From assembly GCA_002720975.1 (NCBI GenBank), contig PBIX01000007.1, positions 58,251 to 122,250 of the forward strand: a DNA stretch of 64,000 nucleotides. The letters run 5' to 3'. This document shows, one piece after another, positions 43,754 to 52,632 of this stretch. This DNA comes from Planctomycetota bacterium (GTDB taxonomy: Bacteria > Planctomycetota > UBA1135 > GCA-002686595). A program made the translations under genes and the position numbers. Below the pieces are notes generated by a model that did no database searches, had not been told where the DNA came from, and saw nothing but the letters and a program-made list of their open reading frames with translations. How positions within the stretch are numbered: position 1 is the first letter of the stretch; every line of letters starts with the position of its first letter.

Positions 43754-45766
43754 ATGGCCATGACCCCCGCTCCCCCCCTGCTCTGCCTCCTGGCCGCCTT
43801 TTTCGGGGGACTGAGCCACCCGGCCCCTCCGACCATGGGGGGTGACCTGGAGCAGTGTGTGCGGACCTTCCGGCGAGCCGCCGCCAAGCGCGCGAACGCT
43901 GCCAGCCACGCTGAGGCCCAGGCTGCGCTGGACGCCCTGGTCGCCTTGGGAGATCCCGCGGCCTGCGAGGTCATCGGCTTGGAGTTTGCCCAGTGCGTCC
44001 AGCGCCTGGGGGAGGTGGAGTCCGAGCAGCAGCGCGTCCGCGCCCGCCTGGCTCAGGGCCAACGGGTCGTGGATGGGTTGACCCTGCGTGCCGAGAAGGA
44101 CGAGAGTCTGGCCGAGGTGCTGAAGGACCAGGTCCGCGCAGCCGAAGGGCTCACCCGCCGTCTGGGCGAACTGGAGGAGAAGGGTGAGGCGCTGCGGCCC
44201 TGGAAGATGTCCGTGTCCGGCGGTGCCGGACGCCTGTTGACGCAGTTGAGCGATTCTCGCAAGCGGAGCGCTCTGAAGGAGATCTGGAGGCAGGCCGAAA
44301 AGGAGGAGATCTGGAGCACACGCCTGGCCGCCATTGGCTTCCTGGGCGAGGTCGGCGGTGAGGATACGACCAAGCGACTGCAGGCGGTGCTGGCTGATCT
44401 CGCCTCCGATTGCGTGCGCTTGGAGCGAGGCCTCCCCAGGAAGGAGGCGGACGTGCGCAAGATGGAGGCGCGCCTACAAAAAGAGAGTGACCAGAGCGGG
44501 GGTGGGGTGTCGGGTGCCAGCGCGGCTCAGTACGAGAAAATCAAACGCGAAGCAGCAGCCGATCGAAGGCAGATCACGGCGATGGGGCAGGTGTGCGATG
44601 AGTGTGTGCTCTCCGCGGGTCGGGCCCTGTTCCGCATGCAGCCCGACGCCCAGGCCAAGGCTCTGACGGCCCTGCTCAAGGCTCAGAGAAAAGCCTCCAC
44701 GGGAGCGCGTCTGAGGACCTTGCAGATTCTGAGTGCGGTGGAATGCGGGCCGGCACAAGCGGCCCTCCTGCGGTGTCTCGATGGGGAGGATGAACCCCTG
44801 GCCATCGCCACCATTCTGCGTGAATTGGCCCCCTACGGCCCGGTGGTCCTGCCCACGTTTGTTGTGATCGCACAGCTGTCCCACGAGTCGTGGCTCGCAC
44901 AGCGCGCCGCCATCGAGGCCCTAGTGATCCTTGGGCAGCGAGAGGGGGTCCGTGCCATGATCACCGCCCTCGAGGGGGCCAGCGGCCGCGTTCGCACGGA
45001 TTTGCGTGGGGGCTTGGTGGCCCTCACCGGATTGGACTACCACACGAACCACACCCTCTGGCAGACCTGGTGGGAGGCGGACGGTGAGCAGTTCGAGGTG
45101 CCCGAAACAGGTCGTACCCTGAGCGCCGCACTGCCCGCGAGAGACTCGGTGGGCATGACCTTCTTCGGGATCACCACGGAGAGTCAACGCGTTCTGTTTC
45201 TACTCGACCTGTCCGGCTCCATGAATTTCTCCATGATCGCCCGGGACAATCCCACCGATACCCCTGGAGTTCCACCGGACTTGCCACGCGGCAAGGAGCA
45301 GTCACGTCTGGAGGCGGCCAAGGTCGATCTGGCGCGAGCCCTGGGTGGGCTGCGTGAGGGAGCGGTGTTCAACCTGGTGCTCTACGCCTCGGACGTGTGG
45401 ACCTGGCAGGACGAGCTGGTGGAGATGGAAGGCACCCAACGCGTGGACGTGCAGGAATATGTGGGCAGCCTGCGCGCTTCAGGGGGCACGAACATCTACG
45501 GCGCCCTTCGCACGGCCCTGGAGATTGCGGGGGTGAAAGGAGGGGAGGAGTGGGATTCTCCGCGCATCGACACCCTGTTCCTCCTGACCGACGGGCGCCC
45601 CTCGGTGGGCCTGACCACCCAACCCGACGAGATCCTGGCTTACGTGAGGGAGAAGAACCGCTCCGGTGGGATTGTGATCCATACGATTGGACTCTCGGGG
45701 GCTCAGGATGCCTACCTGTTGAGTGAGCTGGCTGCACAGAACGGTGGAACGTACTCCGCACGCTGA
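43754..45766 (+). CDS. Secreted HEAT-like repeat / von Willebrand factor A domain protein
   Basis: Signal-like MAMTPAPPLLCLLAAFFGG. A long helical or coiled region is followed by a C-terminal VWA domain with the MIDAS motif LFLLDLSGSM, then GGTNIYGALRTAL and LFLLTDGRPS. Confidence 0.7.
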   Translation: MAMTPAPPLLCLLAAFFGGLSHPAPPTMGGDLEQCVRTFRRAAAKRANAASHAEAQAALDALVALGDPAACEVIGLEFAQCVQRLGEVESEQQRVRARLAQGQRVVDGLTLRAEKDESLAEVLKDQVRAAEGLTRRLGELEEKGEALRPWKMSVSGGAGRLLTQLSDSRKRSALKEIWRQAEKEEIWSTRLAAIGFLGEVGGEDTTKRLQAVLADLASDCVRLERGLPRKEADVRKMEARLQKESDQSGGGVSGASAAQYEKIKREAAADRRQITAMGQVCDECVLSAGRALFRMQPDAQAKALTALLKAQRKASTGARLRTLQILSAVECGPAQAALLRCLDGEDEPLAIATILRELAPYGPVVLPTFVVIAQLSHESWLAQRAAIEALVILGQREGVRAMITALEGASGRVRTDLRGGLVALTGLDYHTNHTLWQTWWEADGEQFEVPETGRTLSAALPARDSVGMTFFGITTESQRVLFLLDLSGSMNFSMIARDNPTDTPGVPPDLPRGKEQSRLEAAKVDLARALGGLREGAVFNLVLYASDVWTWQDELVEMEGTQRVDVQEYVGSLRASGGTNIYGALRTALEIAGVKGGEEWDSPRIDTLFLLTDGRPSVGLTTQPDEILAYVREKNRSGGIVIHTIGLSGAQDAYLLSELAAQNGGTYSAR

Positions 45767-45770
45767 AACC

Positions 45771-46664
45771 ATGGACGACTTCACCCTCACCAACCTCGAG
45801 CTGCGCGAGTCCACGGAGACCGGGGAGGAGGCCGCAGGTCTGTCCCACGCTTCCATGAAGGGCATGCTCCTCCTGACCGTGCTGGAGCTCGCTCCCCGGG
45901 GTGAGCCGCGGGGGGCCGTGACTGTCGTGCACGATGCGGGGGACACGGGTGACCGCTATCGGGAGCTGGCCACCGTGCTTGCCACCCGGGGCTGGGCGGT
46001 GGCCCTGCCCGACCTGCGTGGCCACGGTCGCACCGAGGGGGAGCGGGGGCACAGTGCTGGCCTGATCGAGATCGGGAGGGACCTGGAGGAGATCCAAGAC
46101 CATCTGGCCTATCGCATGCCCGATGAGCCCAAGGTCCTGGTGGGGCAAGGGCTGGGTGCCCTGCATGCCCTCTCCTATGCCATCTCAAAGCCTGGGACCC
46201 TGGCAGGTCTCGTGCTCGTGGCTCCCCTGCACGAACCCCGGTTTGAGCCTCCCGAGGCTCCGAGTGGAATGTTGGGACGCCTGATGGGCAAGAAGTTGAC
46301 GTCCACCTCGCCGGGCTCCATCCCTTGGACGGGCGACCAGCTGGTGCGTGGTGCGGCGGCCGCGGCCTGGGACAGCGATCCGCTCACCCACAACATCATC
46401 ACGGCCCGGGCGCAGGAGCAGGCTCAGCGAGCCGCGAGCGAGTTCCTCCCACGCCTGAGCGAGGTAGGCGTCCCCGTGCTGATACTCCATGGCGCGGACG
46501 ATCCGCTGTCCGACGCCGAGTGCAGCCGCGCGCTGGCCGGGGATGGAGTGCACGTGCAGGTCCTCGATGGCCTCCTACATCATCCCCTTCAGGGGGACGG
46601 CAGCGACGCGGCACATCTGGCTCTGGCCGATTGGCTCGATCAGCACGTGCCAGCCAAGGGCTGA
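45771..46664 (+). CDS. Alpha/beta-hydrolase-fold protein (lysophospholipase/monoacylglycerol-lipase-like) lacking the canonical nucleophile Ser
   Basis: AVTVVHDAGDTGDRYRELATVLATRGWAVALPDLRGHGRTEG and LILHGADDPLSD fit the fold. The nucleophile elbow reads VGQGLGA (GxGxG) where GHSxG is expected. Confidence 0.55.
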   Translation: MDDFTLTNLELRESTETGEEAAGLSHASMKGMLLLTVLELAPRGEPRGAVTVVHDAGDTGDRYRELATVLATRGWAVALPDLRGHGRTEGERGHSAGLIEIGRDLEEIQDHLAYRMPDEPKVLVGQGLGALHALSYAISKPGTLAGLVLVAPLHEPRFEPPEAPSGMLGRLMGKKLTSTSPGSIPWTGDQLVRGAAAAAWDSDPLTHNIITARAQEQAQRAASEFLPRLSEVGVPVLILHGADDPLSDAECSRALAGDGVHVQVLDGLLHHPLQGDGSDAAHLALADWLDQHVPAKG

Positions 46665-46674
46665 GCTGCCGGAT

Positions 46675-47286
46675 CTAGCCTCCGCGGATCATCGACAGGA
46701 ACTCCCGTCGAGTGGCGTCATTGCGCCGGAAGGCGCCAGTCATGCGGCTGGTGACCGTGACGGAGCTGGGCTTCATCACGCCGCGTGTGGTCATGCATTG
46801 GTGTTGGGCTTCGATGACGACTGCCACACCGCGCGGCTCAAGCACCTTGTCTATGGTGTTGGCGATCTGGACGGTGAGCTTCTCCTGGATCTGCAGTCGG
46901 CGTGCGTAGATCTCCACCACCCGGGCCAGCTTGCTCAGACCCACGATGCGGTTGTCGGGCAGGTAGGCGACGTGGGCCACCCCGATGAAGGGCACCATGT
47001 GATGCTCACAGTGTGAGTGCAGGCAGATGTCGCGCACGGTCACCATCTCGTCGTAGCCACCGACCTCCTCAAAGGTCTTGGAGAGGACAAGCTCGGGATC
47101 TTCCTCGTAGCCACCGAAGAATTGATCATAGGAGCGCACCACCCTGGCAGGCGTCTCCTGTAGACCTTCGCGCTGGGGGTCATCGCCCGCGTAGGCGATC
47201 AGTGTGCGTACCGCTTCCTCGGCGGCCTCCTTGGTGGGGCGGGTGTTCTGGGTGGCCATCGGGGCAGTGGTGGTGAGGCGCGTCAT
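46675..47286 (-). CDS. folE: GTP cyclohydrolase I
   Basis: [13 protein letters not shown], zinc and active-site block [48 protein letters not shown] and [13 protein letters not shown]. Start taken at ATG 47286. Confidence 0.9.
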
Positions 47287-47463
47287 GGGAGTCTCCGGCG
47301 GGATTCTAGCAGATTCCTCAAATGGCCGAGACCTCGCCACCTGCGGCTTGTCGGCCCATTCTCGGCCGGGGGGAGGAGTCGGCACGGTGCGCTGCCATCC
47401 TCCACTCCGATCTCCGAGCGGCTTCAAGCGAATCCACGACCACTCAACTGTGCGACGACTCCC
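47164..47463. repeat. Copy A of a roughly 300-bp segmental duplication (folE 5' end, folE-cysS intergenic region, first ~25 nt of cysS)
   Basis: Aligns by eye at about 90% identity with 48829..49124. The track ORFs 47322.. and 48987.. both begin [27 protein letters not shown]. The cysS ATG position reads ACG in this copy. Confidence 0.85.
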
Positions 47464-47520
47464 GCCGCGTGGCGTCGTTACGCCGGAAGGCGCCGGTCAT
47501 GCGGCTGGTGACCGTGGCGG
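47457..47520 (-). pseudogene. Fragment matching the folE 3' end
   Basis: gactcccgccgcgtggcgtcgttacgccggaaggcgccggtcatgcggctggtgaccgtggcgg aligns with folE 46699..46763 (gaactcccgtcgagtggcgtcattgcgccggaaggcgccagtcatgcggctggtgaccgtgacgg). Confidence 0.75.
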
Positions 47521-47548
47521 GACAACAACTGGCTTGGCCGGCTCTTGG

Positions 47549-48742
47549 TCAACGACCCGAGCCGCTGTCCTGAGTGCCGCGGGCTGTGATCGAGCGAAGG
47601 AAGGCGGCCTCCTCATCGTCGAAGGGCGTGCCGTCGGCGCGCAGGATGTCGTGGTGCCACGTCTTCGGCAGGGGTTCACCGGGAGTATCCCAGGAGGCCC
47701 AGCCGTAGGCTGTGTTGGTCTTGCCGGTGACGAGCCCCCAGTTGATCGCGCCGATGCCGTGCTTCTGTAACACCGGCAGGGTCAACTGGAACGTGTCCTC
47801 TCGACTGCGGATGAAGTACTCCGTGCAGAGCATGGGGCGTCCCGGCGCGCCTTCTCCGAGCATGAGGATGAGCTTCTCCAGCGAGTCCTGGTTGCCGTAG
47901 TGGTGAAAGGTGACGATGTCGGCCCACTCGAGCGCTGCCTCGACCTCGAAGTCCCCGCGATTCCAGCAGCTGGTCAGCGGCTGGGTCGGAGCAACCGAGC
48001 GCGCCCACCCCCACACGTCCTTCAGCAACGGCACGCAGAGAGCGCCGGTCAGCCCCTTGGTGTACTCGCCCGGCTTCTTGCCGCGCTGATACCACCACCC
48101 GCCGGGCTCGTTGTAGAGGTCCCACATCAGCACGCGTGGGTCGTCTCGGAAGCGTGTCAGCACGGCGTCGACATATTGCTGGAGGCGACGGCGGAGCGCC
48201 TGATCGGTGGGGTACCGCTTCAGTTGCGGCAGGCCCGGGCTCTCCAGCCAGGCAGAGTTGTGAACGCCCGGCCAGGGACTGGGTTGCTCTCCGATCTTCG
48301 GCTCGGCGAGCCAGCAATCGTCGAAGATCACCAGCAGCACCCTGATATCGTGCGAGGCTGCGATGTCGAGGAGCCGGTTGACGCGCCGCAGGAAGCCCTT
48401 CGGGTCCTGGTCGTAGGCGAGGTCGTGCAGGTAGACGCGCACGACGTTCATCCCCAGATCGGAGGCCCAGCCCAGCTCCCGGTTGATCGTCTCGGGATCG
48501 AAGGTGTCCTCCTGCCACATCTCAAGCTGGTTGACGGCGTTGCTGGGTATGAAGTTGCAGCCGAGCAGCCATGGCTGCCGGGCATGCCACGCTCTCGCCC
48601 GCTCGGTGGTCCAGCGCCCCTTCAGGTGGTCGGGCACCTCCAGCTCCAGCGTGCTCGCTGGCGGCAGCGGCGGCTCTGTCTGCCCGAACCCAGCCGAGGC
48701 GAAGCTCAGCACGGCACATAGAACGGCGGCGGTATGTGTCAT
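47549..48742 (-). CDS. Secreted glycoside hydrolase, GH5-like (clan GH-A; cellulase/mannanase/xylanase-type)
   Basis: Signal peptide MTHTAAVLCAVLSFASAGFG. LGMNVVRVYLH, the acid/base motif MWDLYNEPG (NEP) and a candidate nucleophile in MLCTEYF (TE). ATG 48742 preferred over GTG 48757. Confidence 0.7.
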   Translation of the reverse strand: MTHTAAVLCAVLSFASAGFGQTEPPLPPASTLELEVPDHLKGRWTTERARAWHARQPWLLGCNFIPSNAVNQLEMWQEDTFDPETINRELGWASDLGMNVVRVYLHDLAYDQDPKGFLRRVNRLLDIAASHDIRVLLVIFDDCWLAEPKIGEQPSPWPGVHNSAWLESPGLPQLKRYPTDQALRRRLQQYVDAVLTRFRDDPRVLMWDLYNEPGGWWYQRGKKPGEYTKGLTGALCVPLLKDVWGWARSVAPTQPLTSCWNRGDFEVEAALEWADIVTFHHYGNQDSLEKLILMLGEGAPGRPMLCTEYFIRSREDTFQLTLPVLQKHGIGAINWGLVTGKTNTAYGWASWDTPGEPLPKTWHHDILRADGTPFDDEEAAFLRSITARGTQDSGSGR

Positions 48743-48828
48743 GGCACCTCCAAGCACGTTGCACGGTCAGGTTGCACCCGTCCGAGCATCCCAGGCGAAT
48801 GTGCCGTGGGAGAGCACCGGAGCGGCAA

Positions 48829-48951
48829 CCCTTCGCGCTGGGGGGCATCCCCCGTGTAGGCGATCAGTGTGCGTACCGCTTTCTCGGCGGCCTCCTTGGC
48901 GGAGCGGGTGTTCTGGGTGGCCAATGTGGCAGGGGTGGTGAGGCGCGTCCT
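48829..48951 (-). pseudogene. folE 5' fragment (about 41 codons) with a destroyed start codon
   Basis: Translates as ...[41 protein letters not shown], against fol[43 protein letters not shown]. The position of the folE ATG reads AGG (plus-strand cct at 48949-48951). Similarity stops at about 48829. Confidence 0.8.
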
Positions 48952-49124
48952 GGGAGTCTCCGGCGGGATTCTAGCAGATTCCTCAAATGGCCGAGACCTC
49001 GCCACCTGCGGCTTGTCGGCCTATTCTCGGCGGGGGGGAGGAGTCGGCACGGTGCGTTGCTATCCTCCACTCCCGCCTCCAAGCGGCTTCAAGCGAACCC
49101 ATGACCATTCAACTGTACGACTCC
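48829..49124. repeat. Copy B of the roughly 300-bp duplication (folE 5' remnant, intergenic region, genuine cysS start)
   Basis: See copy A. This copy retains the cysS ATG at 49101 but has lost the folE ATG. Confidence 0.85.
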
Positions 49125-50708
49125 GTCTCCCGCACCAAGCGGCCCCTGAATCCCCTGCAGCCCGGCAAGGTCGGCATGTACGTCTGTGGCCCGACGGTCT
49201 ACGACGATTGCCACGTGGGGCACCTGATGGGGCCCGTCGTGTTTGACACCGTGGCGCGCTGGCTCATGGCACGCGGGCATGAGGTGCGGTTCGTGATCAA
49301 TATCACCGACATCGATGACAAGATCATCAATCGTGCGATTGAGAGCGGTGAGGACTGGTCGGCAATCGCCGAGCGCTACACGGCGCAGTACCTCGGTTTC
49401 TTGAAGGAACTCTCCGTGGTCACCGTGACGGATCACCCCCGTTGCTCAGAGTACGTGCAGGCCATGGTGGATTTCATCGCGGATCTGGTCGCGGGGGACA
49501 TGGCCTACCAGGCCTCCGACGGGGTGTACTTTGACGTCTCGCAGCATGAGGGCTACGGGAAGCTGTCCGGTCGCAAGCTGGACGACATGCTTGCTGGAGC
49601 CCGGATCCAGGCCAGCGAGGGGCTGCGTCATCCGGCGGACTTCGCCCTCTGGAAGAACGTCAAGCCCGGGGAGCCCAGCTGGGAGAGCCCCTGGGGACCG
49701 GGCCGCCCGGGCTGGCACATCGAGTGTTCAGTCATGTCATCCCAACTGCTGGGGCGTACCTTCGACATCCACGGTGGCGGGGATGACCTGAAGTTTCCGC
49801 ATCACGAGAATGAGATCGCTCAATCTGAAGCCCACGGCGACGGCTATGCACGCCACTGGATGCACAACGGCCTGATTCAGTACGAGGGCCGCAAGATCTC
49901 CAAGAGTGATCCGCGCATGCAGGAGGAGTCCTTCTCCCAGCAGTTCCAGGCGCGCTGGCTGCTGGACCGTTTCGGGCCTTCAGCCGTCCGGTTCTTTCTT
50001 CTGCGCACGCCCTACGGTCGGCCCGTGGACTTTGGCCCCAAGGTCCTGGATGGGGCCCAGAAAGGTCTGATCCGGGCCTTGAAGCTCCTCGCCCCGGTCT
50101 TGGATCAGGAGTCCGATCGTGACCTGGAGGCCATTTGTGCCGTACCACTGGAAGAGAATCTCGACAAGGCGCGCGCGTCGTTCTGCACCGCCATGGACGA
50201 TGACTTCAACACGGGTGAGGCCATCGCCCAGTTGTTCACCCTGGCCCGGGACCTGCGTGAGGTTCCTGAGGAGGCGCGTACACCCGGACTCGAAGTGCTC
50301 AGGGACCTGGGCCGCATCCTCGGCCTGTTCCAGCTCGGGGACACCGGGCTCGGGGAAGGGCTCGGCGAAGGAGGAGACCAGGCTCTCTTGGGCAAGGTGT
50401 TGGGCGCGCTGCTCAGCGTGCGCGAGACGGCCCGGAGTGCGGGCGAGTTCGCCACCGCCGATGGTGTTCGTGACCTGCTGGTGGCCCAGGGCGTCGAGGT
50501 GAGTGATTCCGCAGAAGGTGCAGGTTGGTCCGTGGGGTCGGGAGGGGCTCCCGATCTTGAGGGCCTGCTCAATGGCGCCATGGACCTGCGGGAGGCCGCG
50601 CGGGAGCGTGGCGACTATGCGACAGGCGATGGCATACGCGACAAACTGGGCGAAGTGGGGGTGTCAGTGCAGGACGCGGCTGGCCGCTCAACTTGGACCC
50701 TCGCGTAG
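49101..50708 (+). CDS. cysS: Cysteine--tRNA ligase
   Basis: MTIQLYDSVSRTKRPL..., with the HIGH-type motif CGPTVYDDCHVGH. WESPWGPGRPGWHIECS is the zinc site and KISKS is the KMSKS motif. The C-terminal helical module is duplicated. Start taken at ATG 49101. Confidence 0.9.
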   Translation: MTIQLYDSVSRTKRPLNPLQPGKVGMYVCGPTVYDDCHVGHLMGPVVFDTVARWLMARGHEVRFVINITDIDDKIINRAIESGEDWSAIAERYTAQYLGFLKELSVVTVTDHPRCSEYVQAMVDFIADLVAGDMAYQASDGVYFDVSQHEGYGKLSGRKLDDMLAGARIQASEGLRHPADFALWKNVKPGEPSWESPWGPGRPGWHIECSVMSSQLLGRTFDIHGGGDDLKFPHHENEIAQSEAHGDGYARHWMHNGLIQYEGRKISKSDPRMQEESFSQQFQARWLLDRFGPSAVRFFLLRTPYGRPVDFGPKVLDGAQKGLIRALKLLAPVLDQESDRDLEAICAVPLEENLDKARASFCTAMDDDFNTGEAIAQLFTLARDLREVPEEARTPGLEVLRDLGRILGLFQLGDTGLGEGLGEGGDQALLGKVLGALLSVRETARSAGEFATADGVRDLLVAQGVEVSDSAEGAGWSVGSGGAPDLEGLLNGAMDLREAARERGDYATGDGIRDKLGEVGVSVQDAAGRSTWTLA

Positions 50709-50846
50709 TCTCAGTGGGTTACAATTACCTCCTCAGAGGCCACCGTTCGCTCCATTTACACTTTCGTTACACCCATGGAGACGTTGGGGTGCGTCCCGTG
50801 AGGGACGCGATCGCAGTTGTCCATAGCTGCGGCAGTCTCGATCCCC

Positions 50847-50879
50847 CGACCTCTGACCTCCGACCTCCGACCTCTGACC
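50847..50879 (+). repeat. Heptanucleotide tandem repeat (c/t)gacctc, 4.7 units, 14 nt upstream of the protease start codon
   Basis: cgacctc tgacctc cgacctc cgacctc tgacc, read directly from the sequence. Confidence 0.8.
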
Positions 50880-50892
50880 GGCCCCGAACTTC

Positions 50893-52632
50893 ATGCAGAA
50901 CCTCCTCACCATGAGAACGCCTCTACTCGTCACCTTCCTTGGCAGCACCCTTCTGGCAGCGGCCTCCGCCCAAACTTCGGAGCCCCTACCCTTTCCCGGT
51001 GTCCTGATCGGTCCGGGTGAAGTATCGGAGGTCCTGGAATTTGAAACGGACCTGGCGGTGGTCGATGCCCTGACAGACCTCGGCCGGGTCAGCCTGCGGG
51101 GTGTGCCCATGCCCACGGGACAGATCCTCAACCTGGATCTGGAGCGTGTCGAGTTCCAATGGGGATCGCTGGGTGTCTACGTGGACGGTGTGCGCACTGA
51201 ATACGATCCGGGTGATTCCAGCTGCTGGAAGGGCGAGGTTGCCGGAGTGGAGGGCAGCGAGGTCTTCATCTCCTTCTCTTCGTTGGGTAGCTACGGCTGG
51301 ATTCACGACGGCGTGGACTACACGCATCTTAGCGCCATGCCCAATGGCGACGGTGAGTGGGAAGGCGCCCGCATGCGCCTCTACTCGGACAAGGCCCTGA
51401 ACGCAGCCGGTCCAGGGCTCGGCGCCCGCGGAATGGGGACTTGCCTCAGTGATCAGCTGCAAGGCGGCCCTCAGTCTCCTCCGGCCATCAATCCTGCCGA
51501 TCTTTCACCTCCCACCTACGGCGCGGCTCAGAAGCTCGAGTGCAAGATGGCCATTGAGACGGACAACCAGCTCTACAAGAAGTGGAACAATCTGTCCGCC
51601 TGCGAGAACTACGTCTTCGCCCTGCTGGGCGCCATCAGCGACCGCTATGACACCCAGATCGACACCATCCTGACCTTCCCCTATGTGCAGTTCTGGACGA
51701 CCGCGAGCGACCCGTGGAATAGTCAGGATTCGGGCGGCAGCTCGTCCGATCTACTCACCGAGTTCCAGAACGCCTGGGCGGGTAACATCCCCAACGGTGC
51801 CCACCTCGCGCACTTCGTCTCCGGTGCCAACCTGGGTGGGGGAGTGGCTTGGGTCGGTTCGCTCTGCAGCCAGACCTACGGATTTGCCGTGAGTGGCAAC
51901 ATTGATGGTGGTGTGACGTTTCCTGTCACCCAGGGCTCCAACACCTGGGACTTCATGGTGGTTGCCCATGAGACCGGTCACAACTTCGGTACGTCCCACA
52001 CCCACGACTACTGCCCGCCCCTGGACAAGTGCTACAGCAACTGCACGGGCAACACGCAGTGCACCAACCAGGGCACGATCATGTCCTACTGCCACCTGTG
52101 CAGTGGTGGGATGAACAACATCACCACCTATTTCCACCCGAGCGTCGTGTCGACGATGCGTTCGGGGGCAGTCTCCAGTTGCATTCCGAACTGGAACTCG
52201 AACAGCTTTGCGACGGTGTTCTACGACGACTTTGAAGTGGGGGGATTGGTAGCCAACGGCTGGACCAAGGTCAACTCCCGCCGGAAGTCGGACTCGGCCC
52301 ACGAAGGCAACAAGGGGGCCAAGATCCGCAAGTCGGGTAGCATCCTGCGCACGGTGGACACCTCGGGCTTTGGCGAAGTCGTTGTGCGCTACTGGCGCAA
52401 GACCAAGAACTACGATGCGGGCGAAGAGCTACGCCTGCGGTACTCCACGAACGGTGGATCCAGCTGGAAGACTGCTGGAGCCTCCGATGCCATCTCGTGG
52501 GGCTTTGTCGAGTACGCGATGCCCTCCTCCGCGGGCAACAACGCCAACTTCATGATCATGTTCAAGTCCTTTGGCGGCGACGAGCCCAAGGAGAACGGAC
52601 GCGTGGATCAGGTAGAGGTCTTGGGCCGATAG
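50893..52632 (+). CDS. Secreted zinc metalloprotease (metzincin, reprolysin/M12B-like) with a C-terminal beta-rich domain
   Basis: Signal peptide MRTPLLVTFLGSTLLAAASA. Zinc motif HETGHNFGTSHTHD (HExxHxxGxxH). A Cys-rich stretch follows (CPPLDKCYSNCTGNTQCTNQGTIMSYCHLC). Confidence 0.75.
   Translation: MQNLLTMRTPLLVTFLGSTLLAAASAQTSEPLPFPGVLIGPGEVSEVLEFETDLAVVDALTDLGRVSLRGVPMPTGQILNLDLERVEFQWGSLGVYVDGVRTEYDPGDSSCWKGEVAGVEGSEVFISFSSLGSYGWIHDGVDYTHLSAMPNGDGEWEGARMRLYSDKALNAAGPGLGARGMGTCLSDQLQGGPQSPPAINPADLSPPTYGAAQKLECKMAIETDNQLYKKWNNLSACENYVFALLGAISDRYDTQIDTILTFPYVQFWTTASDPWNSQDSGGSSSDLLTEFQNAWAGNIPNGAHLAHFVSGANLGGGVAWVGSLCSQTYGFAVSGNIDGGVTFPVTQGSNTWDFMVVAHETGHNFGTSHTHDYCPPLDKCYSNCTGNTQCTNQGTIMSYCHLCSGGMNNITTYFHPSVVSTMRSGAVSSCIPNWNSNSFATVFYDDFEVGGLVANGWTKVNSRRKSDSAHEGNKGAKIRKSGSILRTVDTSGFGEVVVRYWRKTKNYDAGEELRLRYSTNGGSSWKTAGASDAISWGFVEYAMPSSAGNNANFMIMFKSFGGDEPKENGRVDQVEVLGR

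Follow-up and report, generated by a model that had tools for sequence, protein, structure and literature searches.

A foreign clan GH-A hydrolase gene inside a second, gutted copy of folE in a marine planctomycete, with a candidate captured promoter

We analysed a stretch of 64,000 nucleotides (nt), referred to here as the window, from a Planctomycetota bacterium (GenBank assembly GCA_002720975.1, contig PBIX01000007.1, positions 58,251 to 122,250 of the forward strand), a marine planctomycete whose genome is a metagenome-assembled genome (MAG) of 118 contigs. Between folE, encoding GTP cyclohydrolase I, and cysS, encoding cysteinyl-tRNA synthetase, the window holds a second, gutted copy of folE with a single foreign hydrolase gene inside it (Table 1). 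A repeat search of positions 44000-52000 identified two direct repeats that frame this second copy. The larger, D1, pairs copy A, which includes the working 5′ end of folE, with copy B, which runs into cysS, while the smaller, D2, pairs the 3′ part of intact folE with a 63-nt fragment lying just beyond the hydrolase stop codon. BLAST of the region against its own genome recovered the 63-nt match at E=2.8e-17, and tblastn with FolE detected both remnants, at the equivalents of 48823-48948 (79% over residues 2-43) and 47456-47521 (86% over residues 175-196). Full-length folE is single copy genome-wide by a FolE search of the same genome, and its product shares 97% amino acid identity with that of the closest congener (G003). 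A second Met codon of folE, at 47259-47257, is conserved across the genus.

Table 1. Features of the folE-cysS region in window coordinates
Feature	Coordinates	Strand	Evidence or remarks
Alpha/beta hydrolase (abhydrolase) gene	45723-46664	+	Gene call and Pfam
Intact folE (GTP cyclohydrolase I, 203 aa, ATG at 47286)	46675-47286	-	Pfam PF01227, E=2e-75
Repeat copy A: working folE 5′ end (47165-47286), intergenic region, dead cysS start	47165-47456		292 nt, 92% identical to copy B
folE-proximal block, copy A	47287-47356	-	70 nt; TGCTAGAAT at 47311-47303, GGAG at 47296-47293
Decayed copy, in A, of the candidate cysS -10 region	47392-47401	+	CTGCCATCCT in A versus TTGCTATCCT in B; A-private T to C at 47392 and 47396
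Tandem joint, where cysS codon 7 meets folE at 24 nt from the folE stop	47453-47460		Read from sequence and alignments
folE 3′ fragment (FolE residues ~175-196), second-copy remnant	47458-47520	-	63 nt, 90% to 46701-46763
Orphan stretch between folE 3′ fragment and hydrolase stop	47521-47548		28 nt, unmatched elsewhere
Hydrolase open reading frame, 397 aa	47549-48742	-	From ATG; GGAGG 8 nt upstream
Orphan spacer 5′ of hydrolase ATG, holding GGAGG and hairpin	48743-48829	-	87 nt, unique in genome
Repeat copy B: dead folE 5′ end, intergenic region, live cysS start	48830-49121		Runs into cysS; colinear with closest congener
Dead folE 5′ remnant, presumed leader	48830-48951	-	folE ATG to AGG at 48951-48949; second Met ATG to TTG at 48924-48922
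folE-proximal block, copy B: candidate captured promoter	48952-49021	-	TGCTAGAAT at 48976-48968
Candidate cysS -10, TGCTATCCT (extended -10-like, genus-conserved)	49058-49066	+	35 nt upstream of cysS ATG
cysS (cysteinyl-tRNA synthetase, 535 aa)	49101-50708	+	Pfam PF01406, E=5e-105

The two repeats belong to one tandem unit of about 757 bp, which spans folE except for the final 8 codons, the intergenic region and the first 7 codons of cysS. The segment 46699-47456 thus recurs as 47458-49121 with its interior replaced: about 400 nt of folE (46764-47164) have given place to 1309 nt (47521-48829) carrying one gene. Copy A extends over the first 7 cysS codons, namely the start codon, now ATG to ACG at 47436-47438, and 6 codons that follow it, while the live cysS is called as 535 aa in all population contigs. 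At the tandem joint (47456/47458) the pentamer ACTCC is found in both parental sequences together with an extra GAC, and the later divergence of 10% blurs the joint. It is the only one of the three joints at which microhomology can be read. The first-pass annotation had described a folE 3′ fragment 28 nt beyond the hydrolase stop, a folE 5′ fragment upstream of the gene, and a duplicated folE upstream region directly ahead of the gene; all three hold, the 5′ fragment ending 87 nt from the ATG, and the alignment to folE that it set as a check is significant even for the short match. Its description of a second folE copy with the interior swapped for a 1.3-kb insert stands as to structure, with a missing part of about 400 rather than about 420 nt; the swap itself is one among several possible routes, and the duplication extends into cysS. 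Five of the six differences between the 63-nt fragment and native folE fall at third codon positions (P about 0.02-0.05 by chance), and several of them are states found in other congeners. This bias hints that the second folE copy may have remained functional for some while, or that its source is slightly different.

The same arrangement recurs in many other assemblies. At least 24 contigs of the Tara, FUCH, JGI and NCBI collections, built with different assemblers, encode the hydrolase protein exactly or nearly so, all of them in the uniform order cysS, hydrolase, folE, abhydrolase and with equal spacing. These contigs are colinear with the window, gapless and 99.5-99.9% identical to it, and as more than 20 independent marine metagenome and MAG assemblies show the identical layout, an assembly artefact is rejected. 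Two independent short contigs carrying the E360 variant (L016 and L017) both stop exactly 2 nt after the hydrolase stop (window ~47547), and a third stops 34 nt after it; these ends may mark a branch in the assembly graph arising from allele mixtures in those samples.

Comparison with relatives, a check proposed in the first-pass annotation, revealed the empty site. In all four congeners examined (G001-G004) folE adjoins cysS with neither duplication nor insert, and in the closest of these, at about 91% nucleotide identity, window positions 45203-47465 and 48830-50451 map to overlapping coordinates of one continuous locus. The hydrolase gene is absent from all of 40 to 60 sampled relatives save for weak paralogues, and so from nearly the entire bacterial family, and among the 339 genomes of the whole order only 8 have members of its family, the best being 70% identical. 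Copies A and B share derived bases relative to G003 and G001 at 47203 and 47325, which points to duplication in situ. The folE and cysS remnants have decayed by 9-12%, to be set beside a synonymous divergence from G003 of 0.13 (folE) to 0.30 (cysS) and a population diversity of at most 1.3%. Given these figures and the shared derived bases, the event is old, falling after the split from G003 and long before the present diversity of the population.

The product of the inserted gene has a signal peptide (residues 1-23) and a linker, PPLPPASTLELEVPDHLK, followed by a (beta/alpha)8 domain with the motifs NEP (E212) and TEY (E308). Its relationship to known glycoside hydrolase (GH) families is distant. 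It scores 26.7 bits against PF00150 (cut-off 23.5) over residues 98-220 only, and as a single sequence it gave no match in the PDB by phmmer and none to an NCBIfam model. A profile of 32 sequences found a GH5 mannanase as its best PDB match, at E=3e-4 over about 100 residues. The AlphaFold (AF2) model, with a predicted local distance difference test score (pLDDT) of 89, alternates strand and helix in a (beta/alpha)8 barrel, and the best Foldseek matches of this model are GH5_18 beta-mannosidases and GH5 mannanases at template modelling (TM) scores of 0.5-0.57 and 13-15% identity, the top 40 or more matches all being GH5 or GH164 barrels. Among the 32 homologues E212 and E308 are invariant, and N211-E212-P213 and T307-E308-Y309 are invariant or nearly so. 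The protein thus presents the features that define clan GH-A: the barrel, an acid/base Glu in an NEP motif that follows strand 4, and a nucleophile Glu that follows strand 7. The family to which it belongs returned 3932 matches, mostly single-domain proteins of 350-400 aa from Planctomycetota, Bacteroidota and others, annotated loosely as 'cellulase family' or '1,4-beta-xylanase'. The modelled structure and conserved residues place this secreted protein among the retaining hydrolases of clan GH-A, in a family that is uncharacterised. It resembles GH5 enzymes (the GH5_18 beta-mannosidases 9Y4V, 7LR8 and 6MP7 and the GH5_7 mannanases) in the fold, the NEP acid/base, the later TEY nucleophile and a PF00150 score just over threshold, but differs from them in its low identity, modest TM scores and weak profile match. 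The label 'GH5-like' given in the first-pass annotation is fair, but membership of GH5 is not established. Elsewhere in the same bacterial family, one genome (G068:C88:17798-21877, locus L140) encodes three tandem copies of the GH-A domain in one frame of 2214 aa, the last copy being 70% identical to the window enzyme.

The closest relatives of the hydrolase come from two Planctomycetota MAGs that are not among the genomes of the host order. The homologue in ARS1434 (GCA_002687715.1) is 85-87% identical in amino acids and 87.7% in nucleotides over 1060 nt, and that in SRP308112_co1_43 is 89% identical in amino acids and 88% in nucleotides. In both MAGs the domain forms the C-terminal half of a protein of about 800 aa arranged as signal peptide, BNR_4 domain, linker and GH domain, and in ARS1434 the fusion gene adjoins genes for a GH95 enzyme and a SASA esterase. 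The window hydrolase begins with MTHTAAVLCAVLSFASAGFGQTE joined to PPLPPASTLELEVPDHLKGRW, the second part being the linker of the fusion, which in one MAG is PPLPPASTLEVVKLEVPDHLKGRW. Across this stretch the fused genes have ...PPLPPASTLEVVKLE(LAKVE)VPD..KGRW, and the linker PPLPPASTLE is common to hydrolase and fusion. The signal-peptide DNA matches that of the fusion at 46 of 69 nt, about 21 being expected by chance. None of the ordinary single-domain homologues has the signal peptide or the linker of the hydrolase, and because both match the fusion we regard the gene as an in-frame BNR_4-deleted derivative of a fusion between a BNR_4 domain, resembling polysaccharide lyase (PL) family PL42/GH145, and a GH domain. 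These comparisons also support a source for the gene in planctomycetes of another order, in agreement with the first-pass proposal of accessory gene acquisition: the best match within the order is at 70%, against 85-89% outside it, and the nearest homologues lie in unrelated contexts. Composition weighs against a foreign origin only in that the check, also suggested in the first-pass annotation, found no foreign signal; the GC content of the gene is 0.66 versus 0.64 for the host genome and that of its third codon positions is also host-like, which is uninformative on the matter.

The BNR_4 half is present in the same genome as a separate gene (C27:23907-25241), 78% identical to fusion residues 1-445 and ending in ...PPLPPASTLELVKLERS*. 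It occupies a single-gene insertion of about 1.84 kb (C27:23431-25272, locus L035) between genes that lie 56-70 nt apart in G001 and G003. The insertion has about 476 nt of orphan sequence upstream of the gene, and the gene ends in PPLPPASTLEL, the linker with which the window hydrolase begins. The best PDB relatives of its product are PL42/GH145 L-Rha-alpha-1,4-GlcA lyases (E=6e-46 to 3e-20). Both halves of the fusion thus occur as separate genes that share its linker and signal peptide, and each is a separate single-gene insertion relative to the congeners. Derivation of both halves from one recent copy in this genome was considered and found no support: in the linker, where the two genes overlap, 9 of 33 nt differ, and the synonymous branch of the GH half in a three-taxon comparison is about 0.05 long, against about 0.33 for that of the BNR_4 half. 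The matched lyases include BT3686-type 5MUK and FoRham1 7ESK. This BNR_4 domain was the partner of the GH domain in the ancestral fusion and is fused upstream of it in the two other MAGs, whereas here the halves are separate genes at separate loci with differing synonymous distances to the fused genes.

No trace of a conventional mobile element was found at the locus. There is no transposase frame among its genes and no integrase among the neighbouring ones, and the repeat search gave no terminal inverted repeats flanking the insert. An insertion sequence, transposon, miniature inverted-repeat transposable element or repetitive extragenic palindrome was rejected on the lack of a transposase, on flanks that are unique in the genome and on a duplication consisting of 757 bp of structured local sequence. 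The 87-nt spacer ahead of the hydrolase does contain an imperfect hairpin (48760-48829, minus strand) with arms of about 26 bp and the ends GTTGC...GCAAC, just upstream of the hydrolase ribosome-binding site; its predicted folding energy is -49.9 kcal/mol (z -2.2), 4 of 200 shuffled sequences folded equally well, and it has no U-tract. An integron cassette with an attC site was rejected as well, since this lone palindrome lies 5′ of the reading frame, its arms (GTTGC in the 5′ one, GCAAC in the 3′ one) run opposite to those of an attC site, and no intI was found. The gene and Pfam calls and the polarity of the palindrome thus bear out the first-pass statement that the insert carries no transposase, integrase or attC-like site; its further statement that obvious inverted repeats are lacking needs correcting for the imperfect spacer hairpin. 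The spacer has no Rfam match, no second copy in the genome and no counterpart in the flanks of the fused homologues; likewise the 28-nt tail matched nothing in the rest of the genome or in donor-like loci. Nor did spacer or tail show homology to the C27 insertion or to sequence flanking the fused genes.

The hydrolase gene is under purifying selection. Its ratio of nonsynonymous to synonymous substitution (omega) relative to the fused homologues is 0.11-0.20, and polymorphism within the population comprises 9 synonymous changes and 1 nonsynonymous change.

The two copies of the repeat have decayed in a complementary manner, as seen when their 23 differences are polarised with G003 and G001 as outgroups. 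Changes private to B number 10-11 within the folE remnant of 122 nt; read in the folE frame, 8 are nonsynonymous, and both Met codons are lost. Changes private to A number 8-12 in the 100-nt cysS-proximal part (47357-47456), the cysS ATG among them, and 0-1 elsewhere. Import of the 5′ remnant from the functional folE of a divergent relative is rejected on the 8 of 10 nonsynonymous changes and the loss of both Met codons; the 63-nt 3′ fragment, with its third-position differences, may have been imported in this way. Between these decaying segments lies a folE-proximal block of 70 nt in which A and B have no differences, where about 6 would be expected at the rate of the remnant (P about 0.003). 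On the folE strand the block holds GGAATCTGCTAGAATCCCGCC, including the extended -10-like motif TGCTAGAAT. G003 and G001 have kept this motif, while G004 has TGCTAGCAT in its place, and in copy A the block is free of polymorphism across 16 population contigs. Neither remnant nor spacer contains a TAnnnT hexamer on the coding strand. Taken together, the identical 70-nt block, the decay of the adjacent remnant, the lack of a TAnnnT hexamer nearer the gene and the purifying selection on the gene make it probable, if by no means certain, that the hydrolase is transcribed from the folE promoter region of copy B, in other words that the gene has captured a promoter.

Several points weigh against promoter capture. 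A scan for consensus sigma-70 promoters found none anywhere in the region, a result that is uninformative in planctomycetes, where promoters are poorly defined. Only 16 nt separate the end of TGCTAGAAT from the first folE ATG, a tight spacing for a promoter if translation does not in fact begin at the second Met. The identity of the 70-nt blocks could reflect upstream regulation of cysS, or gene conversion may have evened out the copies; of 14 population contigs one has copy-B bases at copy-A positions 47357 and 47367, at the edge of the identical block, and this exchange suggests gene conversion between the repeats. The spacer hairpin could, moreover, attenuate read-through from copy B.

In one alternative, the duplication is a by-product of the integration of foreign DNA, for instance by the Campbell-type or template-switching routes considered below, the hydrolase has its own promoter in the spacer or remnant, and the copy-B block has been kept for cysS. 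Integration at a homologous segment, followed by excision, would leave exactly such direct repeats around the insert and such precise insert-free alleles (below). The spacer consists of foreign or orphan DNA and includes a structured element, and where no canonical promoter is detected anywhere, absence of one from the spacer proves little. Yet spacer and remnant offer no TAnnnT hexamer on the coding strand, and the conserved 70-nt block does not include the candidate core promoter of cysS. This promoter motif, TTGCTATCCT, is conserved in B, G003, G001 and G004, and it is the cysS-proximal part that has decayed freely in A while the folE-proximal block has remained undecayed in B. We think this alternative unlikely, though it deserves to be kept in view. 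In dead copy A the motif TGCTATCCT has mutated to TGCCATCCT (47393-47401); an active promoter there would fire antisense into the hydrolase gene.

Not all members of the population carry the insert. An exact look-up of FolE found four contigs (L134, L135, L138 and L139), about 99% identical to the window, with folE next to cysS or with a hybrid intergenic region, as if 47165-49121 had collapsed. They come from ERZ23486308, ERZ27245240, ERZ27232239 and GCA_002896115.2. The insert-free intergenic region equals exactly the left part of A joined to the right part of B; both the A-specific base (47190) and the B-specific one (equivalent of 49081) occur in it. In their flanks the insert-free contigs nest among the insertion-bearing haplotypes on at least three backgrounds; L134, for example, shows 4 differences from the window over 1331 sites and the insertion-bearing L025 shows 17. 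These alleles probably arose by recurrent scarless loss of the insert through recombination between the 292-bp repeats, within their identical block. A point against recurrent loss would be that the contigs are loop-skipping assembly errors across an exact repeat, which is unlikely for the two k141 MEGAHIT contigs as the exact repeat is only 71 nt. Counting the alleles in JGI metagenomes with an IUPAC (nucleotide ambiguity code) pattern gave 0 matches, probably since near-identical records are masked.

The insert-free alleles might instead be the retained ancestral state of an old presence/absence polymorphism. An ancestor would likewise equal the two functional halves joined exactly, and recombination between strains could have spread later substitutions to both classes of allele. 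Without recombination, however, the A-private base at 47190 and the B-private base equivalent to 49081 need two extra coincident reversals (rough P about 0.01), and the three or more backgrounds lie within 2-4 differences per 1.3 kb of insertion-bearing contigs whose remnants have decayed by 9-12%. On balance we judge retention of the ancestral state rather improbable and favour recurrent loss.

That some near-identical strains lack the gene would also suit a view of the hydrolase as silent or decaying cargo in an arrangement of no function, but its frame is unbroken in each of the more than 20 contigs, its catalytic residues have been retained, polymorphism and omega are as given above, and the flanking remnants changed by 9-12% in the same period, so that this view is very unlikely. 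Finally, a chimeric assembly of co-occurring strains, for which the 118-contig MAG and the three short contigs ending just beyond the hydrolase stop might speak, is dismissed as extremely improbable by base-for-base equal layouts in MEGAHIT, SPAdes-type and other assemblies on contigs of up to 84-107 kb, and by repeat copies 8% apart, far above the strain diversity.

We infer the order of events, the use of the promoter and the mechanism of loss from the sequence as follows. The ancestral locus, kept in the four congeners, would have read abhydrolase (+), folE (-), an intergenic region of about 150 nt and cysS (+). Soon after the split from the closest congener the unit of about 757 bp would have been duplicated in tandem, with its joint at the apparent ACTCC microhomology, and in the redundant right-hand copy the interior of folE would have given place to 1.3 kb of foreign DNA with one gene, derived from the signal peptide-BNR_4-linker-GH fusion of planctomycetes of another order by in-frame deletion of BNR_4. 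A transcript starting at the right-hand copy of the folE promoter would run through a leader of about 210 nt, composed of the start-less folE remnant and the 87-nt hairpin spacer, with translation beginning at the hydrolase's own GGAGG and ATG. Transcription would probably continue into intact folE, no terminator-like site being evident on the minus strand between the two genes by consensus scan or folding, and the 292-bp repeats would permit scarless loss of the insert by homologous recombination. Three routes fit the formation of the structure: duplication first, making a folE copy dispensable, followed by insertion and deletions, a route reminiscent of promoter capture in the laboratory (PMC6614815, PMC11111574); one replicative event with three or four template switches, which would also explain the 63-nt piece and perhaps the deletion of the domain; or Campbell-type integration of a circle carrying a local segment of 304 nt. 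The data do not discriminate among them.

For horizontal gene transfer, a central question is how newly transferred genes that arrive without a promoter come to be expressed. In laboratory evolution, promoters have been captured by small duplications and deletions within days, while well-resolved natural examples are few. This locus keeps all of the pieces, namely an empty site, a joint, complementary decay, an untouched candidate promoter block, a gene under purifying selection and apparent loss alleles, and it indicates that an essential gene such as folE can host an insertion when local duplication gives redundancy. It would be a well-preserved natural case of a known evolutionary process and not a new kind of system. 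The fission of the PL42-like/GH-A fusion and the apparently reversible loss add moderate interest, and the link between an uncharacterised clan GH-A family and PL42-type rhamnose-glucuronate lyases hints at the substrate. A more speculative possibility, which we put forward tentatively, is that the duplicated segment acts as a scarless reversible dock, in which the hydrolase is driven by the copied folE promoter and can be dropped repeatedly by way of the 292-bp repeats, the fission of the fusion being recorded as well. If true, the ocean-wide planctomycete population would hold a standing presence/absence polymorphism for a 'public-good' glycosidase, and the genome would also record the splitting of a PL42-like/GH-A fusion into two separately integrated genes.

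Known processes close to this one include the recombination of foreign DNA during natural transformation, whether homology-facilitated or double illegitimate, and template switching at microhomologies (microhomology-mediated break-induced replication, MMBIR, or fork stalling and template switching, FoSTeS). The locus resembles such events in its single foreign gene with minimal flanks, in junctions free of the signatures of site-specific recombination and in the short, locally templated pieces of 63 and 122 nt beside the insert. It differs in that microhomology can be read at one joint only. Compared with Campbell-type integration and excision, the locus lacks an integrase and any backbone of a plasmid or phage, its repeats have diverged by 8%, and a simple circle does not account for the extra 63-nt piece of the folE 3′ end, but direct repeats of a local segment bracket the insert and the insert-free alleles are the predicted product of excision. 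A further parallel is the capture of promoters by tandem duplication or deletion, seen in the laboratory, which switches on horizontally transferred or silent genes. The rnk-citT duplication of the Lenski Cit+ lineage is reportedly one such capture by tandem duplication. Horizontally transferred genes have been activated in this way in E. coli carrying ble-GFP, through microhomology-mediated duplication or deletion (PMC6614815), and tandem duplications have been selected in the laboratory through the activation of horizontally transferred genes (PMC11111574). The planctomycete case differs from these in being natural and long fixed, with remnants 9-12% decayed, in that use of the promoter is read from the sequence, and in a foreign gene that is single copy inside the gutted copy of an essential gene and not itself duplicated. 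It shares with them a short tandem duplication with a novel joint, here formed after divergence from the relatives, probably at a microhomology and with no machinery of a mobile element. In both, a copy of a host promoter, here a candidate one, comes to stand immediately ahead of an incoming gene that brought no evident promoter of its own.

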